61,448 nt of DNA, taken from positions 1 to 61,448 of the forward strand of contig CAMZLB010000025.1 of the NCBI GenBank assembly GCA_947311515.1. Direction: 5' to 3'. The stretch is from Candidatus Moraniibacteriota bacterium. Lineage in GTDB: Bacteria; Patescibacteriota; Minisyncoccia; Moranbacterales; GCA-2747515. Positions 4,964 to 27,136 of this stretch are shown here, piece by piece. A program made the position numbers and the translations under genes. The notes beneath the pieces are model-generated. The model was not told where the DNA came from. It saw only the letters and a program-made list of their open reading frames with translations, and made no database searches. Position 1 is the first letter of the stretch, and every line of letters starts with the position of its first letter.

Positions 4964-7081
4964 ATGCACGAAAAGTACACAAAGCCCTATGATGCTTCAC
5001 TTATAGAAAATTCTATTTACAAAAAATGGGAAGAATCTGGATATTTCAATCCTGATAAATTGCCTGGAAAAAGAGAGGAGAGCTTTTGTATAGTCATGCC
5101 ACCTACGAATGCTAACGGAAAACTTCATGCAGGTCACGGTTCAGATTTTGTCATTAAAGATATTATAGGAAGGTATCAACGTATGATTGGTAAAAAGGTA
5201 TTACTATTACCAAGCACTGATCATGGAGGATTTGAAACTCAAGGAGTATATGAAAAAAATCTGCAAAAAGAGGGTCGCTCCCGATTTGGAATGAGTAAAG
5301 CTCAATTATACGATGAGATATATACTTTTGTAGAAAAAAATATACACAATATAGAAAATGATGTAAAAAAACTTGGAACTTCTTGTGATTGGTCCAGAAA
5401 TAAATTCACAATGCAAAAAGATATAATAGAAAAAGTCAAAGACACCTTTATTAAAATGTACAAAGATGGATTGATTTATAGAGGGAATCGTTCAATACAT
5501 TGGAATCCTAAATTTAAAACATCCTTAGCTGACATAGAAACTAAATTTGAAGATAAAACAGAACCATTTTATTATTTTAAATATGGTCCTTTTGAAATAG
5601 CTACATCTCGTCCAGAAACTAAATTTGGAGATAAATACGTAGTTATGCATCCAGATGATAAAAGATATAGTAATTGGAAAGAAGGAGACACTTTTGAAGC
5701 AGAATGGTTAAATGGAAAAATAACTGGAACTGTTCTAAAAGATGAAGCTATTGATATGGAATTTGGAACAGGTGTTATGACTATAACTCCATGGCATGAT
5801 GCTACTGATTTTGAAATTGCTCAAAGACATGGACTAGACTATGAGCAAATTATTGATTTAGATGGACGCTTAATGGATATTGCTGGAGAGTTTTCTGGTA
5901 TGAAAGTGCATATTGCTCGTCCTAAAGTTGTAGAAAAATTAAAAGAAAAGGGCTTAGTTACAAAAATAGAACAAAAACATACACATGCAGTAAGAGTTTG
6001 TGAAAGAACTGGTGTCATATTGGAGCCTCAGTTAATGGAACAATGGTTTGTAAAAATGAAACCTCTTACAGAGCTTGCATTAAAAGCCTTAAAAGAGAAA
6101 AGATTTTCTTTTGTTTCAAAACAATTTGAAAAAACCTTCAGATATTGGATGGAAAATTCAATAGATTGGAATATCTCTAGACAAATAGCTTGGGGAATTA
6201 CAATACCAGCATGGTTTAAAAATAAAGGAGAAGAAAATGAGGAAATTATAGTATCAAATACAAAGCCGGCTGGAGATGGGTGGAAACAGGACACTGACAC
6301 TTTCGATACATGGTTCTCTTCTGGACAATGGCCTCTTTTAGCATTAGGATACCCAAATAATTCTGATTTCAAAAACTTTTTTCCAACTGATGTAATGGAA
6401 ACAGGAAGAGATTTAGTTTTCAAATGGGTTCCTAAAATGATAATGTTTAGTTTATACCTGACTAAAGAAATTCCTTTTAAAGTTATTTATCTCCACGGTA
6501 TGGTCCTAGATAGAAAAGGACAAAAAATGAGCAAATCCAAAGGTAACACGTTGTCTCCGCTTGAACTTTCTGACGAATTCGGTACTGACGCTATGCGAAT
6601 GTCTTTTATAATAGGAAACACACCTGGAAAAGATATGCCCCTGACTACCAATAAAGTTAATGCTTATAAAAAGTTTGCAAACAAACTATGGAATATATCT
6701 AGATTCATTTACTCTAATACTGAAAATTTTGATTTTGATAATTTTGATACCTCTCTACTTGAAAAAGATCAACTAAATAAGATCGAAGAATTGGATGAAT
6801 TCAAAAAAGATTTATCAAAGGATATAGATGAATATAGACTTTATCTCGCAGCAGAAAAAATATATCATTTTATTTGGCATGAGCTTGCAGATAAAATTAT
6901 AGAAGATACTAAAGATTCTGTAATATCAGAAAATAAAGATATAAAAAATCAATATCTACTACTCAAATTTTTACATGAATCATTAAAAATGCTACATCCA
7001 TTTATGCCATTCATAACAGAAGAGATTTGGAAAGACTTCCCTATCAAAGATAAAGACTTGTTGATAGTTGAGAAATGGTAA
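4964..7081 (+). CDS. valS: Valine--tRNA ligase (compact form without the C-terminal coiled coil)
   Basis: Class I aaRS motifs: PPTNANGKLHAGH (HIGH) and KMSKSKGN (KMSKS). ValRS-type CP1 strings TSRPETKFGDKYVVMHPDD and GTGVMTITPWHD. Start taken at the ATG at 4964 (MHEKYTKPYD). Confidence 0.85.
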   Translation: MHEKYTKPYDASLIENSIYKKWEESGYFNPDKLPGKREESFCIVMPPTNANGKLHAGHGSDFVIKDIIGRYQRMIGKKVLLLPSTDHGGFETQGVYEKNLQKEGRSRFGMSKAQLYDEIYTFVEKNIHNIENDVKKLGTSCDWSRNKFTMQKDIIEKVKDTFIKMYKDGLIYRGNRSIHWNPKFKTSLADIETKFEDKTEPFYYFKYGPFEIATSRPETKFGDKYVVMHPDDKRYSNWKEGDTFEAEWLNGKITGTVLKDEAIDMEFGTGVMTITPWHDATDFEIAQRHGLDYEQIIDLDGRLMDIAGEFSGMKVHIARPKVVEKLKEKGLVTKIEQKHTHAVRVCERTGVILEPQLMEQWFVKMKPLTELALKALKEKRFSFVSKQFEKTFRYWMENSIDWNISRQIAWGITIPAWFKNKGEENEEIIVSNTKPAGDGWKQDTDTFDTWFSSGQWPLLALGYPNNSDFKNFFPTDVMETGRDLVFKWVPKMIMFSLYLTKEIPFKVIYLHGMVLDRKGQKMSKSKGNTLSPLELSDEFGTDAMRMSFIIGNTPGKDMPLTTNKVNAYKKFANKLWNISRFIYSNTENFDFDNFDTSLLEKDQLNKIEELDEFKKDLSKDIDEYRLYLAAEKIYHFIWHELADKIIEDTKDSVISENKDIKNQYLLLKFLHESLKMLHPFMPFITEEIWKDFPIKDKDLLIVEKW

Positions 7082-7557
7082 CGACTTTTATACAATCATT
7101 ATCTTTTGGAGGACTTGCAATTATAGGTGCTTTCATTGTTCAGGCTTTTGCAATAACCCTTATTTCAGTTTTCACAAGGGATCCTGGTATAAACTCTATT
7201 TTTGAACTAAATAATACATTTCTTGCTATAACAATAATTGCATTAATTGAAGAAGTATTTAGAATTGCACTTATAAAAAAATTAATAGACATAAGCAATA
7301 ATTCAAATATATTGTTTAAAGGATTTTCTTTTGGTTTCGGATTTTCTATGATTGAATTATTTTTCATATCTCAAAGCGTTCAACTAAATCCCTCTATTCT
7401 TTCTCTTGTGTCTGTGTTTATGTTTCATGTTTTAATAAGTATGTTTACTTTTTATAAATTAAATAAACATAGATATACTATTCAAGTAATCATTTCCCTG
7501 TTAATTGCTGTATCAGCACACATAATTTACAATATACTAGTAAATACTTTAACTTGA
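7075..7557 (+). CDS. CPBP-family (CAAX-like) intramembrane protease
   Basis: Multi-TM 160-aa protein with the three CPBP motifs in order: EEVFR (E-E-x-x-x-R), FMFHV (F-x-x-x-H) and HIIYN (H-x-x-x-N). The ATG overlaps the valS stop (ATGGTAA). Ends in TGA. Confidence 0.6.
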   Translation: MVTTFIQSLSFGGLAIIGAFIVQAFAITLISVFTRDPGINSIFELNNTFLAITIIALIEEVFRIALIKKLIDISNNSNILFKGFSFGFGFSMIELFFISQSVQLNPSILSLVSVFMFHVLISMFTFYKLNKHRYTIQVIISLLIAVSAHIIYNILVNTLT

Positions 7558-16779: not shown

Positions 16780-17295
16780 TTAAAAACCTCTAACAGTGAT
16801 TTTTTTAGTTTTTGTAGTGTCAGCCTTTGGTAATTTTATTGTTAAAATACCATTTTTTAGAGTTGCATCAATCTTTTCGTCAAGTACATCCGTAGGAAGA
16901 ACCAATGAACGAGAAAAAGATCCCCAGTAACACTCTTGATAATAATAATTTTCTTCTGGAATACTATTGTCCTGAGTTCTTGCTCCTTTTATTGTTATCA
17001 TATCATTACTTATGCTAACATCAAGATTCTCAGGCTTAACTCCAGCAATTGTAGATTTAATGACAATATCAGTATCTGTTTGATACACGTCAATTGTTAA
17101 TTGACCCTCCTCATCAACTGCAGATGCCTCTTCTTCCCACATCTCTTCTCTCTGCTGTTCTTGTCGTTGCGGAATCTGTACTTCAGTCTCAACATCCTCA
17201 TCATAAATTTCCATCTGCCGTGGCTGCCCACGCTCAGGAAGCGAAGATCCTGAACCTGTAAATTTATCTAAAAATGAGTGTTTTTCTTTTGCCAT
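16780..17295 (-). CDS. Hsp20/alpha-crystallin family small heat-shock protein
   Basis: Alpha-crystallin domain (LTIDVYQTDTDIVIKSTIAGVKPENLDVSI ... LKNGILTIKLPK) after an acidic N-terminal extension. Confidence 0.85.
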   Translation of the reverse strand: MAKEKHSFLDKFTGSGSSLPERGQPRQMEIYDEDVETEVQIPQRQEQQREEMWEEEASAVDEEGQLTIDVYQTDTDIVIKSTIAGVKPENLDVSISNDMITIKGARTQDNSIPEENYYYQECYWGSFSRSLVLPTDVLDEKIDATLKNGILTIKLPKADTTKTKKITVRGF

Positions 17296-17455
17296 AAAAT
17301 TATTTTAATTTTTGTATCTATTTGTATTATAATATAAAAATAAAAACTACGCAAATAGCCGTATTCAAGAACCTATCTAAAACCTCCTATTGAGGTCAAA
17401 AATATTTACATTTTTCAAGCAGATTCTTAGATTTAAAAATCCAAAATACAAATAC

Positions 17456-17484
17456 TTTACATGCGTCAATTAACATGCTATTAT
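17456..17484 (+). promoter_or_regulatory. Promoter of cassette 1
   Basis: TTTACA, a 17-nt spacer, then TATTAT. Nearly identical to 19516..19544 and homologous to 21641..21669. The upstream block CTTAGATTTAAAA... is also shared by all three cassettes. Confidence 0.55.
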
Positions 17485-17490
17485 CTTATC

Positions 17491-17587
17491 AGGTTAGTTT
17501 TTTGATGTATTTAGCAATGGGCTTATACGCGACAGTGACTTAGTCACAAACTAATCTCAAAGAGCACTTTAACAAAAAGGATTAGCT
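17491..17587 (+). promoter_or_regulatory. Conserved structured 5' leader of cassette 1 (candidate cis-regulatory RNA and/or 12-codon uORF)
   Basis: Outer helix GGTTAGTTT (17492..17500) / AAACTAATC (17548..17556). Inner hairpin GTGAC-TTA-GTCAC (17535..17547). Conserved TGATGTATTTAG box. uORF at 17505..17543 (MYLAMGLYATVT*). SD AAGGA before the ATG at 17588. Confidence 0.45.
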
Positions 17588-18871
17588 ATGTTACCCATAT
17601 CTAAGATATCTGTGATATTAAAATTAATTTTGATATCAGTTGTGATATTACTCATTCCAGAATATGAAAATATTTTTCTGAATACAGTAATATTTTTACT
17701 TGCGCTTGTATTGGTACTTTTATTATCTATTAACTTAATAAAGGATGTATACAGCATTATTGGACTACAAAACAATGGTCTCAATTTAGGAATCATTGTT
17801 TCTCTGATAGTTTCTATAGAAACTGTGTTATTGGCACATTCATTTCAAATAGTAGAAGATACTGATATGGTATTGGCTATTGATTTGATAACTATCGTAC
17901 TTAGTACTTTTGCAATATTTATGAGCGGTTTTAAAAATGTACCAACCCTTCACAGAGAACAACTAACTTTTATGAATAAAATCCTAGCTGGAAAAGAGTT
18001 ATCAGAAGGACCTAGTTGGTGGTTTCCGTTTGTTGGAGATAGAAATCTCTTTCTTTTAGAAAATAAGCAATTAACAATTTTCAAGAAAGTAAAAGAAATA
18101 TCTATTTCAGATAGCGTTCACTTTAAAATTATGTCTATGCATATCATGTATAAATATCTCAAAGGATCTTTATACAAAGTAATGAACTTAGGAGAAAATA
18201 CAGAAGAAGAGATAAAGAAATTTTCCTTGCCCTATATAAAAAAAGCTATGCTACTAACTATTACAGCAAAAACAAAGGGATGTATAGAGCAAAATGATTC
18301 AGGCTTATCAGTAATGGATTTTTTCTTAAAAAACACGGAACTTATCAATAGAATTCTATTAAATGGTTCCTTTTTTGAATCTCATCAAAGATATAGTTCG
18401 CTACTTCAGGACAATTTTTATATAGATAGTGTAGTAAAACTATATAACAAACAACACCTTGATAAAAAAAATGTACCTAAAAGTAGGAAACTTAGTTGGT
18501 TTACACCAGAAATAGCTCTGGAGTATAAATTACCTGTTTTTACAGACGAACAAGCCGACAATTTAATTTCTAATAATATAGGTACAAGTGAACTAGTAAA
18601 TAATGGCTTGTTGAACAAGTTTCATGAAAACGGTTTTCAATTTATATATTTTATAATAGGACCTATGAAAGTTTCGGAAAATAATGAATATAATGGTAAT
18701 AGTGCCACCAATCCCGCACCCTCGTCGTCTAATAATAGATTTTCAGAGATATGTAGAGAGATTTTTGCATGGATTGAAATAAGAATGATAATGTTCATTG
18801 TTATTATTGTGGGAAGGATATGGTATTTCTTCAATGAAGAAGATACTGATTTTAGTTCTAGTTCTAACTAG
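17588..18871 (+). CDS. Cassette 1 'A' protein: 4-TM N-terminus + SPFH/Band-7-like domain, fused in frame to a B-type TM anchor and short Ser linker; ends at an in-frame TAG
   Basis: 427-aa ORF. The SPFH-like assignment comes from motif order (GPSWWFPFVG..., ...GFQFIYFIIGPMKVSENNE), by homology to copy 3. The C-terminal WIEIRMIMFIVIIVGRIWYFF-SSSSN matches the anchor and linker of the copy 3 B protein. The TAG at 18869..18871 is in frame with the next ORF. Confidence 0.6.
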   Translation: MLPISKISVILKLILISVVILLIPEYENIFLNTVIFLLALVLVLLLSINLIKDVYSIIGLQNNGLNLGIIVSLIVSIETVLLAHSFQIVEDTDMVLAIDLITIVLSTFAIFMSGFKNVPTLHREQLTFMNKILAGKELSEGPSWWFPFVGDRNLFLLENKQLTIFKKVKEISISDSVHFKIMSMHIMYKYLKGSLYKVMNLGENTEEEIKKFSLPYIKKAMLLTITAKTKGCIEQNDSGLSVMDFFLKNTELINRILLNGSFFESHQRYSSLLQDNFYIDSVVKLYNKQHLDKKNVPKSRKLSWFTPEIALEYKLPVFTDEQADNLISNNIGTSELVNNGLLNKFHENGFQFIYFIIGPMKVSENNEYNGNSATNPAPSSSNNRFSEICREIFAWIEIRMIMFIVIIVGRIWYFFNEEDTDFSSSSN

Positions 18872-18904
18872 AATCTGCCTAAACAGATCTTCAAAGATGT
18901 AGTT

Positions 18905-19351
18905 TTGCCATCTCCAGATGGAACAACTATACTAACTATGGAGGCTAACACAACTTATTTTGTGAAAGCTTCTATGGATCGCAGGTACCGACTGGAAGAG
19001 CACGTTTACCCTAATTACATTGGGCTTTTTTATCCAAATGGAGCATGTAGAGGAATGCCGTCTTTGCACTACCCCGCAGATAAACATGTCAAAAAGGAGT
19101 TTGGAGATGTCAAGTGGCGAAAACCATATGAGGCAGTATTAATAGCTCTCGTATGTACCGACAATGATGATGCTAAGCTGAAATGTGAAGTCCTATCTGA
19201 CAGAACAATCGCAATCAGAGGGAAAAAAGGGGAAAAGCTAAAGCTATCCCTAAATTTCCCAATAGAAAATGGTATATATGATAGAAACGAATATGCCAAA
19301 AAATGTTTTAGGGGTGGCTGGCTGATAACGGTCGAAAGCTCCAAGAATTAA
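18905..19351 (+). CDS. Cassette 1 'B' C-terminal domain (unknown ~140-aa domain), same frame as the preceding ORF
   Basis: LPSPDGTTILTMEANTTYFVKASMDRRYRLEEH...RGGWLITVESSKN is homologous to residues ~150-292 of the copy 3 B protein. No SD precedes either TTG 18905 or ATG 18938. Expression therefore needs TAG readthrough or SD-less initiation. Confidence 0.45.
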   Translation: MPSPDGTTILTMEANTTYFVKASMDRRYRLEEHVYPNYIGLFYPNGACRGMPSLHYPADKHVKKEFGDVKWRKPYEAVLIALVCTDNDDAKLKCEVLSDRTIAIRGKKGEKLKLSLNFPIENGIYDRNEYAKKCFRGGWLITVESSKN

Positions 19352-19354
19352 AAT

Positions 19355-19390
19355 AAGAGTAGATACATCGCTATCTACTCTTTTGATTTT
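19355..19390 (+). terminator. Intrinsic terminator of cassette 1
   Basis: Perfect 11-bp stem AAGAGTAGATA / TATCTACTCTT with loop CATCGC, then TTGATTTT. An identical hairpin follows all three cassettes. Confidence 0.7.
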
Positions 19391-19515
19391 GTGATATTTT
19401 TACAAAATTAACAATAAACTTGTCCCTAAATAAGATTTTTAATAGAAATAATCAGTACTTTTATTTCTTGTTTTCTGTTTTGTGTCTAAGATTTAAATAT
19501 TTATAATATAGATAC

Positions 19516-19544
19516 TTTACATGCGTCAATTACCATGATATTAT
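19516..19544 (+). promoter_or_regulatory. Promoter of cassette 2
   Basis: TTTACA, a 17-nt spacer, then TATTAT. Two substitutions relative to the cassette 1 promoter. Confidence 0.55.
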
Positions 19545-19550
19545 CTTATC

Positions 19551-19646
19551 AGGTTAGTTTTTTGATGTATTTAGCAATGGGCTTATACGCGACAGTGACT
19601 TAGTCACAAACTAATCTCAAAGAGCACTTTAACAAAAAGGACGCCT
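19551..19646 (+). promoter_or_regulatory. Conserved structured 5' leader of cassette 2
   Basis: Identical to the cassette 1 leader from the -10 element to the SD, by eye. Includes the same helix, hairpin and uORF (19565..19603). Confidence 0.45.
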
Positions 19647-20657
19647 ATGTTAGACATTCCTAAAATATCTATGATATTAAAATTAATTTTGATATCAGTT
19701 ATGATATTACTCATTCCAGAATATAAAAATATTTTTCTGGATCCGAATATAGATATAATAATATCTTTACTTGCAATTGTCATAATAATTCTATTGACTA
19801 TTAAATCATTAAAGGATTTCTATAGTATTATTGGACTAGAAACTAACGGTCTCAATTTAGGGATCATTTTTCCCCTGATAGTTCCTATAGAAACTGTGTT
19901 ATTAGTACACTCATTTCAAATAGTAGAGAATACTGATGTGCTATTGGCTATTGATTTGATAACTCTCGTACTTAGCGCTTTTGTAATATTTATGATCGAT
20001 TTTAGAAATTTCTTTCTTTTGGAGGAAAATAAGCAATTAACAATTCTCAAAAAAGGAGAGAAAATATCTATTTCAGGTAACCTTTATTTTGAAAGTCTGC
20101 CTATGCATATCATATACAAATATCGCAAAGGATTTTTATGCAAAGTAATAAATTTAGGAAAAAATGAAAAAGAAAAGATAAAGAAATTTTCCTTGCCTTG
20201 TATAAAAAAAGCTATGCTACTAACTATCGCAACAAAAACAAAGGAAGGTATAGAAAAAAAATATTCAGGCTTATCAGTAATGGATTTTTTCTTGAAAAAC
20301 ACGGAACTTACCAATAGAATTCTATTAAATGGTTCATTTTTCGAATCTCATCAAAGATATCACTTGCTACTTCAGGACAATTTGTATATAGATAGTGTAG
20401 TAAAACTATACGACAAACAACACCTTGATAAAAAAAATGTACCTAAAAGTAGGAAACTTAGTTGGTTTACACCAGAAATAGCTCTGGAGTATAAATTGCC
20501 TGTTTTTACAGACGAACAAGCCGACAATTTAATTTCTAATAATATAGGTACAAGTGAACTAGTAAATAATGGCTTGTTGAACAAGTTTTATGAAAACGGT
20601 TTTCAATTTATATATTTTATAATAGGACCTATGAAAGTTTCGGAAAATAATGAATAG
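19647..20657 (+). pseudogene. Cassette 2 'A' paralog with internal deletion of the SPFH-like N-terminal strands and a premature in-frame TAG (probable pseudogene or readthrough-dependent)
   Basis: Lacks ~33 codons present in copy 1 (VPTLHREQLTFMNKILAGKELSEGPSWWFPFVGDRN). A TAT-to-TAG change at 20655..20657 sits where copy 1 reads ...NNEYNGNS. The same frame stays open downstream. Confidence 0.5.
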
Positions 20658-20867
20658 GATGGTAACAGCGCCACCAATCCCGCACCCTCGTCGTCTAATA
20701 ATGGATTTTCAGAGGGACTCAGAAAGATTTTTACATGGATTAAAATGCTAATATTTCTTATCATTGTTTGGGTAATATGGTATTTTTTCAGTGATAATAC
20801 TGATTTCAGTAATAATTTCAGTTCTGATTTTAGTTCTAATTCTACTTCTAGTTCTAGTTCTAACTAG
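20658..20867 (+). other. In-frame open segment of cassette 2 (B-type TM anchor + Ser-rich linker) bounded by two TAG codons
   Basis: Translates as DGNSATNPAPSSSNNGFSEGLRKIFTWIKMLIFLIIVWVIWYFFSDNTDFSNNFSSDFSSNSTSSSSSN followed by TAG (20865..20867). Same frame as 19647 and 20937. Confidence 0.4.
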
Positions 20868-20936
20868 AATCTACCTAGACAACAGATCTTTAAAGACGTA
20901 GTTTTACCATCTCCAGATGGAACAACTATACTAACT

Positions 20937-21356
20937 ATGGAAGCTAACACAACTTATTTTGTGAAAGCTTCTATGGATCGCAGGTACCGACTGGAAGAGC
21001 ACTTTTACCCTAATTTCATTGGACTTTCTTATCCGAATGGAGCGTCTAACGGAATGCCGTCTTCGCTCTACCCAGTAGATAAACGTGTTAAAAAGGGGTT
21101 TGGAGATCTGATAAAGTGGAAAAAACCATATGAGGCTATATACACAGCACTCATATGTACCAACAATGACAATAGTACGGAATTGGAATGTGAAGTCCTA
21201 TCTGACAGAACAATCGCAATCAGAGGAAAAGAAGGGGAAAAGCTAAAGCTATCCATGAATTTTCCAATAGAAAATGGTCTATATAATAGAAACGAATATA
21301 CCAAAAAATACTTAAGGGGTGGCTGGCTGATCACAGTCGAAAGCTCCAAGAATTAA
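20937..21356 (+). CDS. Cassette 2 'B' C-terminal domain (unknown ~140-aa domain)
   Basis: MEANTTYFVKASMDRRYRLEEHFYPNF...RGGWLITVESSKN. Intact ORF, in frame with the upstream segments, no SD. Confidence 0.4.
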   Translation: MEANTTYFVKASMDRRYRLEEHFYPNFIGLSYPNGASNGMPSSLYPVDKRVKKGFGDLIKWKKPYEAIYTALICTNNDNSTELECEVLSDRTIAIRGKEGEKLKLSMNFPIENGLYNRNEYTKKYLRGGWLITVESSKN

Positions 21357-21359
21357 AAT

Positions 21360-21396
21360 AAGAGTAGATACATCGCTATCTACTCTTTTGATTTTT
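21360..21396 (+). terminator. Intrinsic terminator of cassette 2
   Basis: Same AAGAGTAGATA-CATCGC-TATCTACTCTT hairpin plus T tract. Confidence 0.7.
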
Positions 21397-21505
21397 GCAA
21401 CCTAAAAATTCAAACAAAAAAGATGAGCAGTAACTCATCTTTTTAAATTTAGAGCCAATCTACACAATAATCTTTGCAAGTGATTTGATAATTACTAGTG
21501 ATACA
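21397..21505. repeat. Duplication scar: copy of 23990..24098, including a second hairpin and a ~45-bp relic of the pilin gene 3' end
   Basis: TGCAACCTAAAAATTCAAACAAAAAAGATGAGCA.TAACTCATCTTTTTAAATTTAGAGCCAATCTACACAATAATCTTTGCAAGTGATTTGATAATTAC occurs at both places. At 24053+ it encodes the C-terminus (...IIKSLAKIIV*) of a minus-strand pilin. Confidence 0.7.
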
Positions 21506-21640
21506 ATACTATTTCATCAAAGAAGCCTAATTAAATCTAATTTTCTTATTAAATTTTAAGTTTTCAATAAAAATAATTAGCTCTATTCTTTTCCGTATTT
21601 CACTCTATATCTTAGATTTTAAAATTCAAAACATAAACAC

Positions 21641-21669
21641 TTGACTTATTTAAATTATTATGCTATCAT
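21641..21669 (+). promoter_or_regulatory. Promoter of cassette 3
   Basis: TTGACT, a 17-nt spacer, then TATCAT. Confidence 0.55.
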
Positions 21670-21674
21670 ATTTT

Positions 21675-21779
21675 TAGTTTAGTATTTAGTGATGTATTTA
21701 GAATGTTCTACTTACACACTTATAATTTATTATAAAACTAAACTAACTTTCTTTAACAATTGAATAAAAAGGATATAAA
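21675..21779 (+). promoter_or_regulatory. 5' leader of cassette 3 (diverged homologue of the cassette 1/2 leader)
   Basis: Outer helix TAGTTTAGT (21675..21683) / ACTAAACTA (21737..21745): different sequence, same architecture. Conserved GTGATGTATTTAG box. uORF at 21692..21763 (MYLECSTYTLIIYYKTKLTFFNN*). SD AAGGA before the ATG at 21780. Confidence 0.4.
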
Positions 21780-23069
21780 ATGAAATTTTTAGGAATTTTA
21801 TTAAGTATAGCAGCTCTAATATTTGGACTGCTACTAGGTTCAGAGATGTATGCTACGTCAAGTGATATTAGTATTACAACAATGATACTTGGAGACATTC
21901 TACTTTCTGGTTTCTTAGCAGTAAGCACAGTATCTACTCTCTATTTTACATATAAAATAGTTGAGTTAAGTTATAATGGCTTACTACTTGGAGCACTAAC
22001 TTCGTTATTGCTTACAATAGAAACAATAATCATTGTAAATACACTGTTTCCACTAGGACTGCTATTGAACACTGTGGTGTTCGTGTTGCTAGTAGTGTTT
22101 TTCTTTTTCCATGGATACCTGGAGATACCTAACCTCAATAAAGCGCAAATTTTTTTCATAGAGAAAACGTTACCGAGGGGCGAATTAGTGGATGGGCCTG
22201 CGTGGTTCTTCAACATCCCCTCTTTAATAGAGATTAGACTCTTTTTGATGGATGTTAGAACATTAGAACTCTTCAAGGGAGATCCTCTCTCAATATCCCA
22301 TGGGATGAGCTTCAAAACTTCACCTATAAAAGTGACATATAAGCTCAACAATTTAGAGCAGTATATCAAATTGGGTGCAGAAGCAAGAAAAGATTGGGAA
22401 AATTATTTAGTAGACAGTATCAGAAATGCTGCAATACTAATAATAAGTAGCAAAAGTGAAGAAGAACTAAATGAAGAGTATTCAGGTCTAGCATTACTCC
22501 TCATTATGGACTCATTAAAAATGTTCAAGAGAATTATCTTGAATGGAACTTATTTTGAGTCTCATCTAGAATATCCCATACTGAAAAGAGATGAAATGTA
22601 TGAGAAAAAGATACAGGACACATATGCAAATTTAGATGACTTTACAAAAGAGGAGAGTCAAAAAAACAAAATACATATCTTTTCAGATAAACAATGGACA
22701 ATGTTACTAGATTCCAAAAGTGAGGACAACCTACCCAATAGAGGGGTTTTGCATAAAAGCTCAGATATAGGCTTTACGTTGGTGGATATCACTTTTGGAA
22801 ACTTCACATTAGAGGATTCTCTACAAGCTGAAATCCTCAAGAAAAGAAGTGAAGGCCTCCAAAGAGAAGCAGAATTAGCTGACATAACAACACTGGAAAT
22901 GTTAGCTAAAAAAATAGCGTCTTTAGGAATTCCAATTGACAAGGCTACACAACTAGCCATGTTGCGTATGGATACACCAAACCTAAACTACAAAGTAACT
23001 GAAATTTTATCCACATCGGATAAAGTTGACCAAGTTATAGCAGCACTTATAGAAGGAAAAGGAGAATAA
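21780..23069 (+). CDS. Cassette 3 'A' protein: 4-TM N-terminus + SPFH/Band-7-like domain with coiled-coil tail (full-length form)
   Basis: 429 aa. Strings follow SPFH order: GPAWFFNIPSLIEIRLFLMDVRTLELF, IKVTYKLNNLEQYI, YLVDSIRNAAILII, IGFTLVDITFGNFTLEDSLQAEILKKRSEGLQREAELADI. Family call is by eye only. Confidence 0.6.
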   Translation: MKFLGILLSIAALIFGLLLGSEMYATSSDISITTMILGDILLSGFLAVSTVSTLYFTYKIVELSYNGLLLGALTSLLLTIETIIIVNTLFPLGLLLNTVVFVLLVVFFFFHGYLEIPNLNKAQIFFIEKTLPRGELVDGPAWFFNIPSLIEIRLFLMDVRTLELFKGDPLSISHGMSFKTSPIKVTYKLNNLEQYIKLGAEARKDWENYLVDSIRNAAILIISSKSEEELNEEYSGLALLLIMDSLKMFKRIILNGTYFESHLEYPILKRDEMYEKKIQDTYANLDDFTKEESQKNKIHIFSDKQWTMLLDSKSEDNLPNRGVLHKSSDIGFTLVDITFGNFTLEDSLQAEILKKRSEGLQREAELADITTLEMLAKKIASLGIPIDKATQLAMLRMDTPNLNYKVTEILSTSDKVDQVIAALIEGKGE

Positions 23070-23070
23070 A

Positions 23071-23949
23071 ATGATTTACTTAATAATGATGTTAATAATC
23101 ATATTTACGAACAAACCAAACTTTGGATTTGATTCTGTGTTTGAGGATCTTGGATTCAAAAAAGAGCTTGAGGAAGCGGAAAAAGCAAAAAAATCCGCAC
23201 CCTTGTGGTCTAGCAATATAACCAAAATAGCATCTGGATTTATAAAGGGATTAGCAAATCTTTTTCTGTGGATTGCAAAAATGCTAATGTACTTTGCTAT
23301 TGCTTGGGGAATATGGTATTTCTTCAGTCATACTGATTTTAGTTCTAACTTTAGTTCTAGTTCTAGTTCTAGTTCTAGTTCTAATTCTAGTTCTAATTCT
23401 AGTTCTAATTCTAGTTCTAATTCTAGTTCTAGTTCTAGTTCTAGTTTTAGCTCTAGTTCTTACCAGAATATACTTAGACAACAGATCTTTAAAGATATAG
23501 TTTTACCATCTCCAGATGGCACAACTATACTAACTATGGAAGCCAACACAACTTACATTGTAAAGGCTTCTATGGACAGAAGATACAGACTGGAAGAGCA
23601 CTTTGACCCTAATTTCATTGGACTACTTTATCCAAATGGAAAATCTAACGGGAGAAAAATTTCCTCATACCCAGCAGATAACTTTATCAAAAAGGGATTT
23701 GGAGATATAAAGTGGAGAAAACCATATGAAGCAGTATACATAGCACTCATATGTGTCGACAATGACGATGGTAAACTGGAATGTGAGGTCCTATCTGACA
23801 GAACAATCGCAGTTAAAGGAAAGAAAGAAGGAAAACTAAAACTATCCCTAAATTTCCCAATAGAGAATGGTATATATGATAGAAACGAATACCCAAAAAA
23901 ATATTTTAGAGGTGGCTGGCTAATCACAGTCGAAAGCTCCAAGAATTAA
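23071..23949 (+). CDS. Cassette 3 'B' protein: N-terminal hydrophobic segment, TM anchor, ~40-residue poly-Ser/Asn linker, unknown ~140-aa C-terminal domain
   Basis: 292 aa with a strong SD (AAGGAG) 7 nt upstream. The ATG lies 1 nt after the A stop. The C-terminal domain is homologous to 18905..19351 and 20937..21356. Confidence 0.65.
   Translation: MIYLIMMLIIIFTNKPNFGFDSVFEDLGFKKELEEAEKAKKSAPLWSSNITKIASGFIKGLANLFLWIAKMLMYFAIAWGIWYFFSHTDFSSNFSSSSSSSSSSNSSSNSSSNSSSNSSSSSSSSFSSSSYQNILRQQIFKDIVLPSPDGTTILTMEANTTYIVKASMDRRYRLEEHFDPNFIGLLYPNGKSNGRKISSYPADNFIKKGFGDIKWRKPYEAVYIALICVDNDDGKLECEVLSDRTIAVKGKKEGKLKLSLNFPIENGIYDRNEYPKKYFRGGWLITVESSKN
23341..23460 (+). repeat. Hexanucleotide microsatellite (AGTTCT / AGTTCTAATTCT)n encoding the poly-Ser(Asn) linker
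   Basis: About 20 consecutive 6-nt units read directly from the sequence. Both alternative-frame ORFs here (23284..23481 minus, 23294..23500 plus) are artefacts of the repeat. Confidence 0.9.
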
Positions 23950-23952
23950 AAT

Positions 23953-23989
23953 AAGAGTAGATACATCGCTATCTACTCTTTTGATTTTT
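23953..23989 (+). terminator. Intrinsic terminator of cassette 3
   Basis: Same 11-bp perfect hairpin plus T tract as after cassettes 1 and 2. Confidence 0.7.
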
Positions 23990-24008
23990 GCAACCTAAAA
24001 ATTCAAAC

Positions 24009-24038
24009 AAAAAAGATGAGCACTAACTCATCTTTTTA
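24009..24038 (-). terminator. Bidirectional hairpin terminator closing the minus-strand pilin array
   Basis: AAAAGATGAG-CACTAA-CTCATCTTTT flanked by A and T runs, 15 nt downstream of the pilin stop at 24053. Duplicated at 21416..21446. Confidence 0.6.
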
Positions 24039-24052
24039 AATTTAGAGCCAAT

Positions 24053-24679
24053 CTACACAATAATCTTTGCAAGTGATTTGATAATTACCAGCGATATAAG
24101 AGCTATAACTATACCTACAACTGCATATTTGATAGTGTTTTTGCCCATTTCTGCACGCTTTTCATCTCCTGTTGAAGTAATATATATAACCCCACCTACA
24201 ACTATCATGAGCACACTAAGACCTCCTATGAAACTCATGAGGGATTTGAGGACATTTAGTACTATTTCAGAAAGCGTTTTTGCAGCTACAGCTTCAGCTG
24301 GTACTATAGCAGGACTAACATTCATTACATCATATATCTCCTTGAGAAATGATGGAGCCGCAAACGCTAGTGAAACTCCTATGATAGCTGCCCATATAGC
24401 TCCCTTTGCCATACTCATACGCTTTTCATCGCCAGAAGATGTGATATATATAATACCGCCTATCACTATAAATACTATAGCTAGCACACCTATCATCATC
24501 TGAATAGTCTTCAAGATATTTGATAGTAATGCCTCTACAGTATCAAAGGCCAATGGATTTTCAAATTTTATTGGAGTTATTACTACTCCTTGTGCCCCAA
24601 CATCTTGTGGCATTATAAATGAAAAGGCTATAGTTAGTACGATTATAACTGGAAGAGATGTTTTGAATAAACTTTTCAT
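24053..24679 (-). CDS. Internally duplicated (double) TrbC/VirB2-like 'T4SS pilin' family protein
   Basis: Signal peptide (…FIMPQDVGAQG), then two repeats of the pilin unit. Each unit has a TM helix, GG(I/V)IYITS(S/T)GDEKR, and a second TM helix. Confidence 0.65.
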   Translation of the reverse strand: MKSLFKTSLPVIIVLTIAFSFIMPQDVGAQGVVITPIKFENPLAFDTVEALLSNILKTIQMMIGVLAIVFIVIGGIIYITSSGDEKRMSMAKGAIWAAIIGVSLAFAAPSFLKEIYDVMNVSPAIVPAEAVAAKTLSEIVLNVLKSLMSFIGGLSVLMIVVGGVIYITSTGDEKRAEMGKNTIKYAVVGIVIALISLVIIKSLAKIIV

Positions 24680-24700
24680 ATTTTTTAATTTTTGAAATTA

Positions 24701-25108
24701 TTATATTGCTCCGAGAGCTCTAGATACTACATAAACTATGACATAAGCAAGAAGTGCCAAGATTAATCCATATATCGCTGTAGTAAATATCCTCTTCGCC
24801 GTGTCAACTCTGCTTTCATCAGATTCAGAAGTTATATACATCAAACCACTTACAATTATCATAAGTGTTGCAAGACCTCCTAGAAATTGCAATATAAAAC
24901 TTATAATCTTTACGATGACTGTTATTATTTTATCATCAGTGGAGATACCCTTTGGACCTTGAGCATGATTTGGATCTGGTAAGCAAACTCCGTCTACCAG
25001 TGCGTATCCAGGTGTACTAGTACAAGTAAAGGCGCTTGTGTATTGAAAATTTCCCCACAGTGTCAATGCAAATACAAACACTAGCATAGATATAAATTTT
25101 ATTTTCAT
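24701..25108 (-). CDS. TrbC/VirB2-like 'T4SS pilin' family protein
   Basis: Signal peptide, Cys pair (CTSTPGYALVDGVC), TM helix, SGLMYITSESDESRVDTAK, then a second TM helix. Confidence 0.65.
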   Translation of the reverse strand: MKIKFISMLVFVFALTLWGNFQYTSAFTCTSTPGYALVDGVCLPDPNHAQGPKGISTDDKIITVIVKIISFILQFLGGLATLMIIVSGLMYITSESDESRVDTAKRIFTTAIYGLILALLAYVIVYVVSRALGAI

Positions 25109-25184
25109 ATTTTTTATTTAATTTTTATCCATTATCACTCAGATACTTACTTTAGTATACATCAACATATACATAAAACACAAA

Positions 25185-25580
25185 TTACATACCTACAACT
25201 TTTGATACAATATTTACTATAACCCAAGCAAGCAAAACAATGATAAGTCCATATATTACCTGTATAATCATAGTCTTTGCCATTTCAATACGCTTTTCAT
25301 CTCCACCTGATGTTATATATATAATTCCAGCAACGATAAGATACACAACAGCCAACGCAGCCACGAAGCTTAATATAAATTTCATAACTTTCACTATAAC
25401 ACCACTAACCGTAGGACTTGTTTCCTTTCCAACTTTTGTGACTTTTAATCCATCCTCAAAACTAGGAAAACTTTCTGCATTAGCATGCCCTACAAAAGCA
25501 ATTTCACATCCATCAGTAGAGACTGCAAAAACTCCTATAATCAATAAAAGAAAAAAACCTATTTTCATCAAAGATTTCAT
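25185..25580 (-). CDS. TrbC/VirB2-like 'T4SS pilin' family protein
   Basis: Start taken at the ATG at 25580 (MKSLMKIGFF...). Motif AGIIYITSGGDEKRIEMAK lies between two TM helices. Confidence 0.65.
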   Translation of the reverse strand: MKSLMKIGFFLLLIIGVFAVSTDGCEIAFVGHANAESFPSFEDGLKVTKVGKETSPTVSGVIVKVMKFILSFVAALAVVYLIVAGIIYITSGGDEKRIEMAKTMIIQVIYGLIIVLLAWVIVNIVSKVVGM

Positions 25581-25631
25581 ATTTTTATTTTTTAACCTTA
25601 TATTTTTATTATACACGCTTTTGTGCAAAAT

Positions 25632-25662
25632 AAAAACTCTAGTCAATAAGTCTAGGGTTTTT
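25632..25662 (-). terminator. Intrinsic terminator between pilin paralogs
   Basis: Minus strand: AAAAACCCTAG-ACTTATTGA-CTAGAGTTTTT, then ATTTT. Part of a repeated intergenic block. Confidence 0.55.
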
Positions 25663-25767
25663 AGATATATTTTAAAAGCTATTTCAAATCCTACCTTTTT
25701 GTTGAAATATAATAATTCAACTAAAAGTAAGTATTTTCAAAAAACTATTAATAATATTTAACACTTA

Positions 25768-26142
25768 CTACGGACCTATAACTACATTTGATACGATATT
25801 TACAATTACCCATCCAAGTAATGCAATTATAAGTCCTATGATTGCATATATTATCCATTTCTTTGCTGTTTCTACTTTTCCTTCATCTCCTCCTGATGTT
25901 ATGTACATAATTCCAGCAATAAGTATGACAAGAACAGCCAAAGCAGCTAGAAATGTCAAAAAAAATGAAATAACCTGCCGTATAATACTAATCACCGTCC
26001 TTGTTCCTCCTTTATCATTATATTGTGCTACCGCAAGTCCTCCTTTATAATCAGCATTCAAAGATCCAGCTACTGCATACAAAGGATTTATCAAAAAAGC
26101 TATTGCAAGAGCGATAATAGCATTGTTTTTGATTGTATTCAT
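25768..26142 (-). CDS. TrbC/VirB2-like 'T4SS pilin' family protein (tandem paralog)
   Basis: GGAGGTG SD upstream of the ATG at 26142 (MNTIKNN...). Motif AGIMYITSGGDEGKVETAKKWIIYAIIGLIIALLGWVIVNIVS. Confidence 0.7.
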   Translation of the reverse strand: MNTIKNNAIIALAIAFLINPLYAVAGSLNADYKGGLAVAQYNDKGGTRTVISIIRQVISFFLTFLAALAVLVILIAGIMYITSGGDEGKVETAKKWIIYAIIGLIIALLGWVIVNIVSNVVIGP

Positions 26143-26209
26143 ACTATTCACACCTCCTCTCTTTTAATTTTTATAACTTGCATTCATTATACACGCTTTT
26201 GTGCAAAAT

Positions 26210-26240
26210 AAAAACTCTAGTCAATAAGTCTAGAGTTTTT
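26210..26240 (-). terminator. Intrinsic terminator between pilin paralogs (second copy)
   Basis: Perfect 11-bp stem AAAAACTCTAG / CTAGAGTTTTT with a 9-nt loop, inside the repeated intergenic block 26188..26353. Confidence 0.55.
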
Positions 26241-26345
26241 AGATATATTTTAAAAGCTATTTCAAATCCTACCTTTTTGTTGAAATATAATAATTTAACT
26301 AAAAGTAAGTATTTTCAAAAAACTATTAATAATATTTAACACTTA

Positions 26346-26720
26346 CTACGGACCACCTATAACTAGAGTTGATACGATATTTACAATTACCCATCCAAGT
26401 AGTGCAATTATAAGTCCTATGATTGCATACATTATCCAATTCTTTGCTGTCTCTACTTTTCCTTCATCTCCTCCTGATGTTATATACATAATTCCAGCAA
26501 CAAGTATGACAAGAACAGCCAAAGCAGCTAGAAATGTCAATAAAAATGTAATAATTTTCAAAATAATTGTAGGAATATCAGTATTTGTATTATCAGTATA
26601 TTTTACTTTATCTCTTCCTGTTTTAAATGTAGCATCTAGACCTGCTTGAGCACTAGCTAAGCTTGGAACTACTAGGATTGTAAACAACAATGCTAGGCTG
26701 GTATTTTTGATTATGTTCAT
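26346..26720 (-). CDS. TrbC/VirB2-like 'T4SS pilin' family protein (tandem paralog)
   Basis: GGAGGTG SD upstream of the ATG at 26720 (MNIIKNT...). The C-terminal half is almost identical to 25768..26142. Confidence 0.7.
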   Translation of the reverse strand: MNIIKNTSLALLFTILVVPSLASAQAGLDATFKTGRDKVKYTDNTNTDIPTIILKIITFLLTFLAALAVLVILVAGIMYITSGGDEGKVETAKNWIMYAIIGLIIALLGWVIVNIVSTLVIGGP

Positions 26721-27136
26721 TTTAGCATACACCTCCTCTCTTTTATTTTTTTAAATCTCATATTTATTGTATATCTTTTTTAAGAAATAGTCAACCACAT
26801 TTTTAATATATAGCAAATATATAACTAATCATATATTAGAATTCACCACGTTATTTGTATTTTTTTTAAGATAAAAATAACAATTAATTATTCTATTATA
26901 TTTCTATATGAGACTTAGCTATATTGTAATAATTTACAAATCTTATTATTTTTTTTATGATTTCTATTTTTAAATTCAGTTTTTTGTACTATATTTTTAA
27001 TAAAGTTCCAATAACTTACTCATTTTATCTGTAAATTCTTTTATGTATTTTTATAAATTTTTATTCAGTACTAGCGCCCCTATATTTTAAAGATAAACTG
27101 TAAATATTAACAAAAAAAATTAATAAACTAAATCTA

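Follow-up and report, generated by a model that had tools for sequence, protein, structure and literature searches.

In-frame amber codons in two tandem cassettes of a Moraniibacteriota genome probably mark truncated chimeric paralogues of a gene-converting family

The stretch of DNA analysed here, 61,448 nt of a Candidatus Moraniibacteriota bacterium (GenBank assembly GCA_947311515.1, contig CAMZLB010000025.1, positions 1-61,448 of the forward strand; hereafter the window), carries three tandem cassettes built from an A part, which encodes an SPFH-like membrane protein, and a B part, which encodes a membrane anchor, a serine-rich linker and a beta-rich domain. In cassette 3 the two parts are separate, intact genes (A3 and B3); in cassettes 1 and 2 (A1-B1 and A2-B2) they lie in one frame that is interrupted by in-frame TAG codons, beyond which the B domain stays open. 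The account that we favour, with moderate confidence, is that cassettes 1 and 2 are nonsense-truncated tandem chimeric paralogues that have been homogenised with the expressed, hypervariable B gene, and that the B tails beyond the linker TAG are essentially untranslated remnants. These tails would look intact because they have acquired few private mutations and because their remaining variation has been exchanged by gene conversion with functional, selection-filtered alleles. This is also the most economical account of the locus.

Results

Two cassettes are open except for three TAG codons

The cassettes and their associated elements are laid out as follows.

17456-17484, forward strand: promoter-like site of cassette 1 (TTTACA-17-TATTAT with TG), followed by a conserved leader
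17588-19351, forward strand: cassette 1, a single frame whose sole internal stop is TAG 18869-18871 (tct aac TAG aat); ends with TAA
17588-18871, forward strand: cassette 1 open reading frame (ORF) of 427 aa, an SPFH-like A1 domain with a B-derived transmembrane anchor and a short Ser linker, stopping at TAG 18869-18871
18872-19351, forward strand: B1 tail, the B domain in 159 in-frame codons beyond the linker TAG, with ~79% aa identity to B3
18895-18977, forward strand: stable pair of hairpins in the sense RNA, starting 23 nt beyond the TAG; the in-frame AUG 18938 lies in the second one
19355-19382, forward strand: intrinsic terminator of cassette 1, with a bidirectional stem
19516-19544, forward strand: promoter-like site of cassette 2
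19647-21356, forward strand: cassette 2, a single frame with internal TAG codons at 20655-20657 and 20865-20867; ends with TAA
19647-20657, forward strand: A2 segment of cassette 2, 336 aa, ending at TAG 20655-20657
20658-20867, forward strand: anchor and Ser-rich linker of cassette 2, between both TAGs and ending at TAG 20865-20867
20868-21356, forward strand: B2 tail, 162 in-frame codons of the B domain, with two private +3-nt insertions
21357-21506, no strand assigned: 3' flank of cassette 2, a copy of the cassette 3 flank
21641-21669, forward strand: promoter-like site of cassette 3 (TTGACT-17-TATCAT with TG)
21780-23069, forward strand: A3, intact, 429 aa, an SPFH-like membrane protein with 97% aa identity to its orthologue in a related strain
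23071-23949, forward strand: B3, intact, 292 aa, comprising a first transmembrane helix (TM1), a charged loop, a second helix (TM2) as anchor, a Ser-rich linker and a 160-aa beta-rich domain
23953-23980, forward strand: intrinsic terminator of cassette 3

Apart from these three TAGs, frame inspection found no internal stop and no frameshift in cassettes 1 and 2, so the frames and TAG positions of the original prediction, which had been made from the sequence without database searches, were reproduced. The same holds for the aligned codons that it named: the linker TAG is aligned to CAG in cassette 3 (23464-23466; TCT TAC CAG AAT), and the first TAG of cassette 2 to TAT in cassette 1 (18689-18691). 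Since a contig from a different assembly (CAMZNX010000193.1 of GCA_947313875.1, L002) is 100% identical to window positions 19946-22677 (2.7 kb), both TAGs of cassette 2 and the deletion in this cassette described below are reproducible. It is thus very improbable that the TAGs are consensus or assembly errors in a repeat-rich region, or low-frequency population variants. The region is indeed repetitive and other assemblies break within it, but the agreement over 2.7 kb includes the deletion and both of these TAGs, and the linker TAG is present in two diverged contexts.

All three cassettes carry an extended -10 promoter and a conserved leader, and an intrinsic terminator is placed only after the B part, so that the B tails are predicted to be transcribed. 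The promoter and leader of cassette 1 are ~97% identical to those of cassette 2, with blocks common to cassette 3. The promoter, together with ~35 nt at the start of the leader (TTAGT.TTT..TGATGTATTTAG), is conserved in all three cassettes (17440-17530, 19500-19590 and 21625-21715), in contrast to the coding sequences of A1 and A2, which are saturated at synonymous sites relative to A3; this block may be a regulatory site common to them. Hexamers of AGTTCT/AATTCT encode the Ser-rich linker, with 2 copies in cassette 1 (18820-18871), 5 in cassette 2 (20780-20867) and 17 in cassette 3 (23330-23470). It is short in the related strain L001 (assembly GCA_947313845.1), and every change in linker length is in frame. 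An Rfam search of 17200-24100 returned no match at E values up to 1.

Cassettes 1 and 2 are chimeric and carry lesions of different ages

Compared with cassette 3, cassettes 1 and 2 lack the last ~90 aa of A, where its helical tail lies, and also the ~40 aa with which B begins, TM1 included; this joins the SPFH domain straight to the B anchor. The two joined parts have diverged to very different extents. A1 and A3 share 29.5% aa identity and their synonymous sites are saturated (pS 0.70; synonymous divergence, dS, about 2), whereas the anchor-linker-B parts of cassettes 1 and 2 differ from cassette 3 at a dS of about 0.5. Furthermore, the flank of cassette 2 (21357-21506) duplicates that of cassette 3 (23950-24099) with its B terminator (21360-21387), the terminator of the adjacent pilin gene (21417-21444) and the 3' end of the pilin ORF (24053-24099), and identity decays beyond ~24090. 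The saturated A divergence, set against the younger anchor-B part and the copied 3' flank, argues that an older A paralogue received a B3-type segment. Judged by these alignments, cassettes 1 and 2 are best described as chimeric fusions of an older A paralogue with a younger B3-type anchor-linker-domain segment. The pilin-gene relic in the flank of cassette 2 dates the segmental duplication.

The lesions in these two cassettes comprise the nonsense codons, the loss of the A tail and of the TM1 of B, and, in cassette 2, a deletion of 36 codons just before nt 20004 (equivalent to cassette 1 nt 17933-18040), as would be seen in pseudogenes or truncated paralogues. The 36 codons had carried four of the nine residues that are invariant in the A family (F126, L131, G139 and W142), all nine of which are retained in A1. 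Between cassettes 1 and 2 the ratio of non-synonymous to synonymous substitution rates (dN/dS) of the A part is 0.56, above that of the B part and as expected under relaxed constraint. Cassette 2 is therefore clearly decaying, and cassette 1 may still make the 427-aa SPFH-anchor protein.

The two types of TAG differ in age. TAG 20655 lies within a tract that is ~98% identical between cassettes 1 and 2 and therefore looks recent. By contrast, the linker TAG is common to both cassettes, which now differ at 2-3 positions within the 15 nt 3' of it, and L001 has AAC CAG AAT in the exact flanking context of cassettes 1 and 2. The linker TAG is therefore not very recent, and it would have arisen by a C-to-T change on the stem of cassettes 1 and 2.

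TAG is an ordinary stop codon in this genome

Among 46 gene ends in the window, 33 are TAA, 12 are TAG (including those of nusG, rpoC and vanW) and one is TGA. A global or lineage-wide reassignment of TAG, to glutamine or pyrrolysine, was rejected on these counts, as the original prediction had already concluded. No other TAG-split gene was found in the window besides the two cassettes and adjacent genes with their own starts, and no tRNA-CUA is encoded in these 61 kb, where the sole tRNA is tRNA-Ser(GGA). The base following genuine TAG terminators is T (7) or A (5), and that following the cassette TAGs is A, A and G; the comparison with genuine terminators that had been proposed as a check is thus not discriminating, and the 3' base does not set the cassette TAGs apart from true stops. 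Given that ~27% of the possible nonsense mutations in the cassette genes yield TAG, two independent amber events have a probability of about 0.07, which bears out the earlier caution that only two independent events are involved and that an all-amber pattern is suggestive, not significant. The sole gene that ends in TGA (7075-7557) has a TAA two codons further on, and the long genes showed no TGA in frame; the genome may make hardly any use of TGA.

Private changes in the B tails fit neutrality

A number of observations weigh against regarding the B tails as untranslated remnants. B1 and B2 differ with a dN/dS of 0.38 (dS 0.25), which departs from neutrality at P = 0.002 (NG86). The departure was weaker in a permutation that keeps the substitution spectrum, where 38.5 +/- 3.2 non-synonymous changes were expected and 31-33 observed (P = 0.02-0.05). 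The 24 codons 3' of the TAG contain five synonymous changes and one non-synonymous change, and all indels between the cassettes are in frame, including the two private +3-nt insertions in B2. In addition, each cassette has kept a strong promoter, the conserved leader and the post-B terminator, hence the predicted transcription of the tail, and the linker TAG has persisted for some time, being common to cassettes that have since diverged by ~12% in B. Most in-frame stops in a survey of bacteria persist only at the scale of polymorphism (PMC7918605). Finally, the test of private changes given next has low power, with n = 34 substitutions.

To polarise the differences between B1 and B2 we used B3 and the L001 orthologue as outgroups. 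The 55 substitutions (about 12% divergence in B) include 18 that are private to B1, seven synonymous and 11 non-synonymous against a neutral expectation of 4.2:13.3, and 16 that are private to B2, with six synonymous and 10 non-synonymous against 5.2:10.5. For all 34 private changes together (13 synonymous, 21 non-synonymous) the joint probability of a non-synonymous count as low as that observed is 0.20, and that of no stop is 0.41. The private changes of B1 and B2 thus fit neutrality. When all 55 substitutions were subjected to the same spectrum-keeping permutation, 1.4-1.9 stops were expected, and the probability of finding none was 0.13-0.22. A further 15 differences are 2:2 splits in which both states are found in functional alleles (B3 and L001-B), and at the changed sites within the 24 codons 3' of the TAG, cassette 1 matches L001 and cassette 2 matches B3. 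The low overall dN/dS would thus be due largely to variants common to functional B alleles, which were already filtered by selection and then moved by recombination. The anchor segment of cassettes 1 and 2 has a dN/dS of 0.35.

Two expectations of the original prediction can be revisited with these numbers. Its argument that open downstream frames are unexpected for dead sequence loses its force, since the private changes are few and neutral and a tail free of new stops has a probability of 0.41. The dN/dS comparison that it proposed gave a divided answer: the overall value of 0.38 is below 1, and the private changes are not different from neutral (P = 0.20).

The expressed B gene is hypervariable and mosaic between strains

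The intact B gene differs far more between the window and L001 than its neighbours do. Amino acid identity is 97% for A3 and 96% for the adjacent pilin and only 69% for B, and dS is 0.55 for B as against 0.14, 0.14 and 0.05 for flanking genes. Nucleotide identity along the locus is as high as 100%, over a stretch of 600 nt, and falls to 73% in B. The former stretch (window 21801-22400, L001 1-600) is embedded in sequence that differs by 4-12%, which indicates a probable recent recombination tract between the strains.

Within B, conserved blocks stand on either side of a central variable region, and L001-B is a mosaic. In alignment columns 0-115, that is, ~115 nt after the linker, it resembles cassettes 1 and 2, with five mismatches to cassette 1 and 14 to cassette 3, and it has CAG at the TAG site. 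In columns 115-170 it resembles cassette 3 (nine mismatches to cassette 1, none to cassette 3), and columns 405-450 hold a 45-nt foreign patch unlike any copy in the window. The breakpoint near column 115 has a post-hoc Fisher P of 6e-4 and a single-breakpoint max-chi2 P of 0.05. Since the B parts are much more alike among the cassettes than the A parts, the family appears to evolve in concert, and the variants common to functional B alleles point to segmental gene conversion. An expressed B that is hypervariable between close strains (69% against 96-97% in the flanks) and has a mosaic allele is what silent-cassette systems show. Promoterless donors, on the other hand, are not what we found, because both cassettes have an extended -10 promoter, a Shine-Dalgarno (SD) sequence and an ATG.

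Hairpins at the start of the B domain are not specific to the TAG-containing copies

In the sense RNA a structure of two hairpins lies at the start of every B domain (18895-18977, 20894-20976 and 23493-23575; about 1595-1680 in L001). With z scores of -4.9 to -5.4 (-5.4 in cassette 1) these regions rank with the terminators and belong to the most stable of the 90-nt windows scanned over 18 kb, and G-U pairs make the hairpins strand-specific. Across cassettes 1-3 and L001 we counted one compensatory pair, three wobble-compatible changes and two broken pairs. The hairpins begin 23-26 nt 3' of the TAG, and cassette 3, where there is no stop, has them to the same degree. A TAG-specific readthrough-stimulating structure was rejected for this reason.

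The hairpins also bear on the extremely improbable alternative that ribosomes reinitiate after the TAG, or start without an SD sequence at the only in-frame AUG (18938 in cassette 1, 20937 in cassette 2), to yield a free B domain of 137-139 aa. Gene callers do predict ORFs for the B tails (P0004 and P0005), and the absence of an SD sequence is not disqualifying, as several bona fide genes here lack one. However, this AUG lies 67-70 nt past the TAG, buried in the 5' arm of an 11-bp stem in a region with z of about -5. The TTG at 18905 is TTA in cassette 2, conservation within B is highest in the 24 codons ahead of the AUG (5:1 synonymous to non-synonymous), and the product would have neither the anchor nor the linker by which B3 is placed outside the cell. 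The contrast in SD sequences to which the original prediction had pointed holds in part: AAGGA or GGAGG precedes A1, A2, A3, B3 and two pilin genes, and neither is found at pilin208 or pilin135, nor at hsp20 or vanW.

A and B form a rare two-gene module

By its predicted fold, A is a divergent SPFH-family membrane scaffold. The AlphaFold2 (AF2) model of A3 (pLDDT 75.7) shows a beta-rich core between four predicted helices at the N-terminus and a long helical tail, and a Foldseek search with it retrieved stomatin, HflK/C, prohibitin, erlin and flotillin at E values of 2e-6 to 1e-3. Fold, helical tail and membrane anchoring are all those of the SPFH/Band 7 family. Neither A nor B gave a significant match in Pfam or NCBIfam, and A had no match to the Band_7 sequence model. 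In B3 the Ser-rich linker, encoded by AGTTCT repeats, is followed by the beta-rich domain of 160 aa, which is presumably membrane-anchored, tethered by the linker, hypervariable and exposed at the surface. Its AF2 model (pLDDT 44) is unusable, and B gave no Pfam match to NfeD, whose C-terminal domain is an OB fold.

The A family is very rare, with 12 matches among 1.84e9 representative proteins. One distant homologue (L004; GCA_054011055.1, 8001-10108; 455 aa, 33% identity) is followed, with a 1-base overlap, by a separate protein of 246 aa that has the same layout of two helices and a beta domain and a similar C-terminal GGxWxxTV motif. A and B are likewise separate genes in L001, so that two separate genes would be the canonical architecture; the pair appears to be a conserved but very rare module. 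No intact A-B fusion and no A1/A2-type protein was found in 5.8e9 protein clusters. Relatives of the B domain were absent from GTDB genomes, JGI metagenomes and IMG/VR, and the protein database gave a single orthologue (P0003). The host genome is AT-rich (~30% GC) and belongs to the Paceibacteria of the candidate phyla radiation (CPR). The best matches to its VanW are Paceibacteria metagenome-assembled genomes at 45-50% identity, and a VanW synteny search retrieved only such distant Paceibacteria (45-50% aa), with an Hsp20-VanW pair and without A or B genes.

Next to cassette 3 lies an array of five paralogues of type IV secretion system (T4SS)/TrbC-type pilins (24053-26732, reverse strand; L001 2151-4158). 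Two patches of this array (24495-24594 and 25695-25794) are only 79-82% identical between the strains in surroundings of 96-100%. As far as these alignments go, the surface genes at the locus seem to undergo localised recombination or diversification. A very rare divergent SPFH scaffold, a hypervariable domain on a Ser linker, the adjoining T4SS-pilin array and segmental recombination between strains together give the locus a moderate interest for CPR biology.

Discussion

The sequence of events that we propose would begin with a B3-type segment, reaching from the loop before the anchor to beyond the terminator, being pasted onto an anciently diverged A1-type gene, whereby the C-terminal helical tail of the latter was deleted. 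Next, in the common ancestor of cassettes 1 and 2, the CAG codon that ends the linker would have become TAG by a transition, so that the fusion was cut off directly before the B domain. Cassette 1 would still be able to make the 427-aa protein of SPFH domain and anchor, and cassette 2 would have decayed further through the recent TAT-to-TAG change and a deletion that took 36 codons out of the SPFH core. For the tails of B1 and B2, translation would not exceed the trace that a near-cognate tRNA-Gln gives at any UAG. The sequences show the stops, the chimerism, the decay of cassette 2, the neutral private changes and the mosaicism; we infer the lack of B-tail translation and the direction and timing of the conversions. 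Of the three options offered by the original prediction, pseudogenisation or truncation is best supported, with the proviso that "very recent" fits TAG 20655 and not the linker TAG; reinitiation is disfavoured.

Functional readthrough, the remaining option, we regard as unlikely. Here the linker UAG would be decoded in part, most simply as Gln by a near-cognate tRNA-Gln(CUG) or else by some unseen suppressor tRNA. The main product of cassette 1 would be the 427-aa SPFH-anchor protein, accompanied by a smaller amount of a 587-aa SPFH-anchor-linker-B isoform, and selection on this isoform would keep B1 open. The derivation of TAG from CAG suits this proposal, as Gln would restore the ancestral meaning, and so do the sharing of the TAG by two diverged cassettes, the overall dN/dS below 1 after the TAG with its 5:1 ratio in the first 24 codons, the in-frame indels and the absence of a terminator between the TAG and the B tail. 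The topology of the fusion would also make sense, provided that the SPFH domain lies on the same side of the membrane as the B3 loop. The very stable hairpin pair at 23-26 nt downstream speaks for readthrough as well, but known stimulating structures have a spacer of about 8 nt from the stop; the pair is too far away by this measure and also occurs in the stop-free cassette 3. Nor is the base after the TAGs (A, A, G) different from that after genuine terminators (7 T, 5 A), so that neither 3' base nor hairpins are specific to the TAG copies, and no sequence feature here appears to mark the cassette UAG as a site of programmed readthrough. In Salmonella pseudogenes, readthrough affects UAG more often than the other stops, chiefly as Gln, and C at -1 and A at +5 are enriched (PMC9122581, Feng et al. 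2022). The linker TAG has both of these bases; by this analogy, trace readthrough of the cassette UAG is plausible. Several points tell against a functional role: the private changes are statistically neutral, cassette 2 would need two events and has lost its SPFH core, the window encodes no tRNA-CUA, and an intact fused homologue is absent from the 5.8e9 protein clusters. As regards conservation of the stop across homologues, TAG is confined to cassettes 1 and 2, and the L001 sequence of the cassette 1 type has CAG.

A further proposal, just as doubtful, is that B1 and B2 are archival donors, silenced by TAG and kept by second-order selection as a reservoir of variants that are copied into B3 by segmental gene conversion. 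Silent-cassette systems based on segmental gene conversion include pilE/pilS of Neisseria and MgPar of Mycoplasma genitalium. An archive of this kind would fit the hypervariability of the expressed B among strains that are otherwise nearly identical (aa identity of 69%, with 96-97% in the flanks; dS of 0.55, with 0.05-0.14 in the flanking genes), the expressed L001 allele with its segment of the cassette 1/2 type spanning the TAG site, the conserved blocks that flank the central variable region, and the concerted evolution seen in B parts far more similar than the A parts. It fits less well with cassettes 1 and 2 having full promoters, start codons and long A parts, which donors do not need, with there being just two donors, and with a variable region that has no dN/dS above 1. 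The single-breakpoint max-chi2 test of the L001 allele reaches only P = 0.05, homologous recombination between strains explains the mosaic equally well, and equivalents of cassettes 1 and 2 were not found in the L001 assembly. One could combine both proposals, at similarly long odds, into a surface-variation system of a CPR/Paceibacteria episymbiont in which the amber-silenced variants B1 and B2 are exchanged with the expressed B, and occasional Gln readthrough displays the stored variants at a low level. If true, it would be the first archive-type variation system described in Patescibacteria. Evidence that the B tails are expressed, or serve as donors, would open up the question of how episymbiotic Patescibacteria vary their surface.

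Under the account that we favour, truncated paralogues homogenised with an expressed B gene, the locus serves as a cautionary case: an open frame and a dN/dS below 1 past a nonsense codon in a recombining multi-copy family are not proof of readthrough. Splitting the changes private to a lineage from the variants common to functional copies removes the apparent signal of selection.

Several known systems resemble parts of the locus. QmcA-YbbJ (PDB 8z5g) resembles the two-gene module in that A3 has the SPFH fold, N-terminal transmembrane helices and a C-terminal helical tail, and the next gene encodes a small membrane protein whose C-terminal domain is beta-rich; the pair is kept in a distant relative. 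In contrast, A and B here have no Pfam Band_7 or NfeD sequence match, A has four predicted N-terminal helices, and B has a Ser-repeat linker and a hypervariable 160-aa domain that, as far as the poor B model allows, would not be an NfeD OB fold. In the vlsE/vls system of Borrelia (PMC11499132), as here, one intact, expressed, hypervariable and presumably surface domain is accompanied by adjacent non-expressible copies that are ~80-85% identical, and the expressed allele of a sister strain is a mosaic. Unlike in vls-type systems, the additional copies here have their own promoters and starts and, at the N-terminus, a large SPFH part that is unrelated; they number only two, and unidirectional transfer is putative. 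The CS3 pili of enterotoxigenic Escherichia coli, a case of programmed amber bypass in pilus biogenesis (Jalajakumari et al. 1989, listed in PMC6681793), likewise involve an in-frame amber in a cell-surface gene from which a longer suppression product is possible, but the CS3 bypass was shown experimentally, whereas here the TAG context equals that of ordinary terminators and one of the two cassettes is degenerate.

A close parallel is with bacterial "pseudo-pseudogenes" containing in-frame stops (PMC7918605, PMC9122581), which share with our locus a CAG/TAG alternation at one aligned codon, a stop common to related copies, an overall dN/dS below 1, an expected mRNA, and UAG as the stop most prone to trace Gln readthrough. 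In-frame alternation of CAG and TAG with a dN/dS below 1 is common in bacteria (PMC7918605, Belinky et al. 2021). The present locus, which is known from sequence alone, differs in that its private changes look neutral and its copies are paralogous tandem cassettes in a gene-converting family, where conversion alone would explain the low dN/dS.

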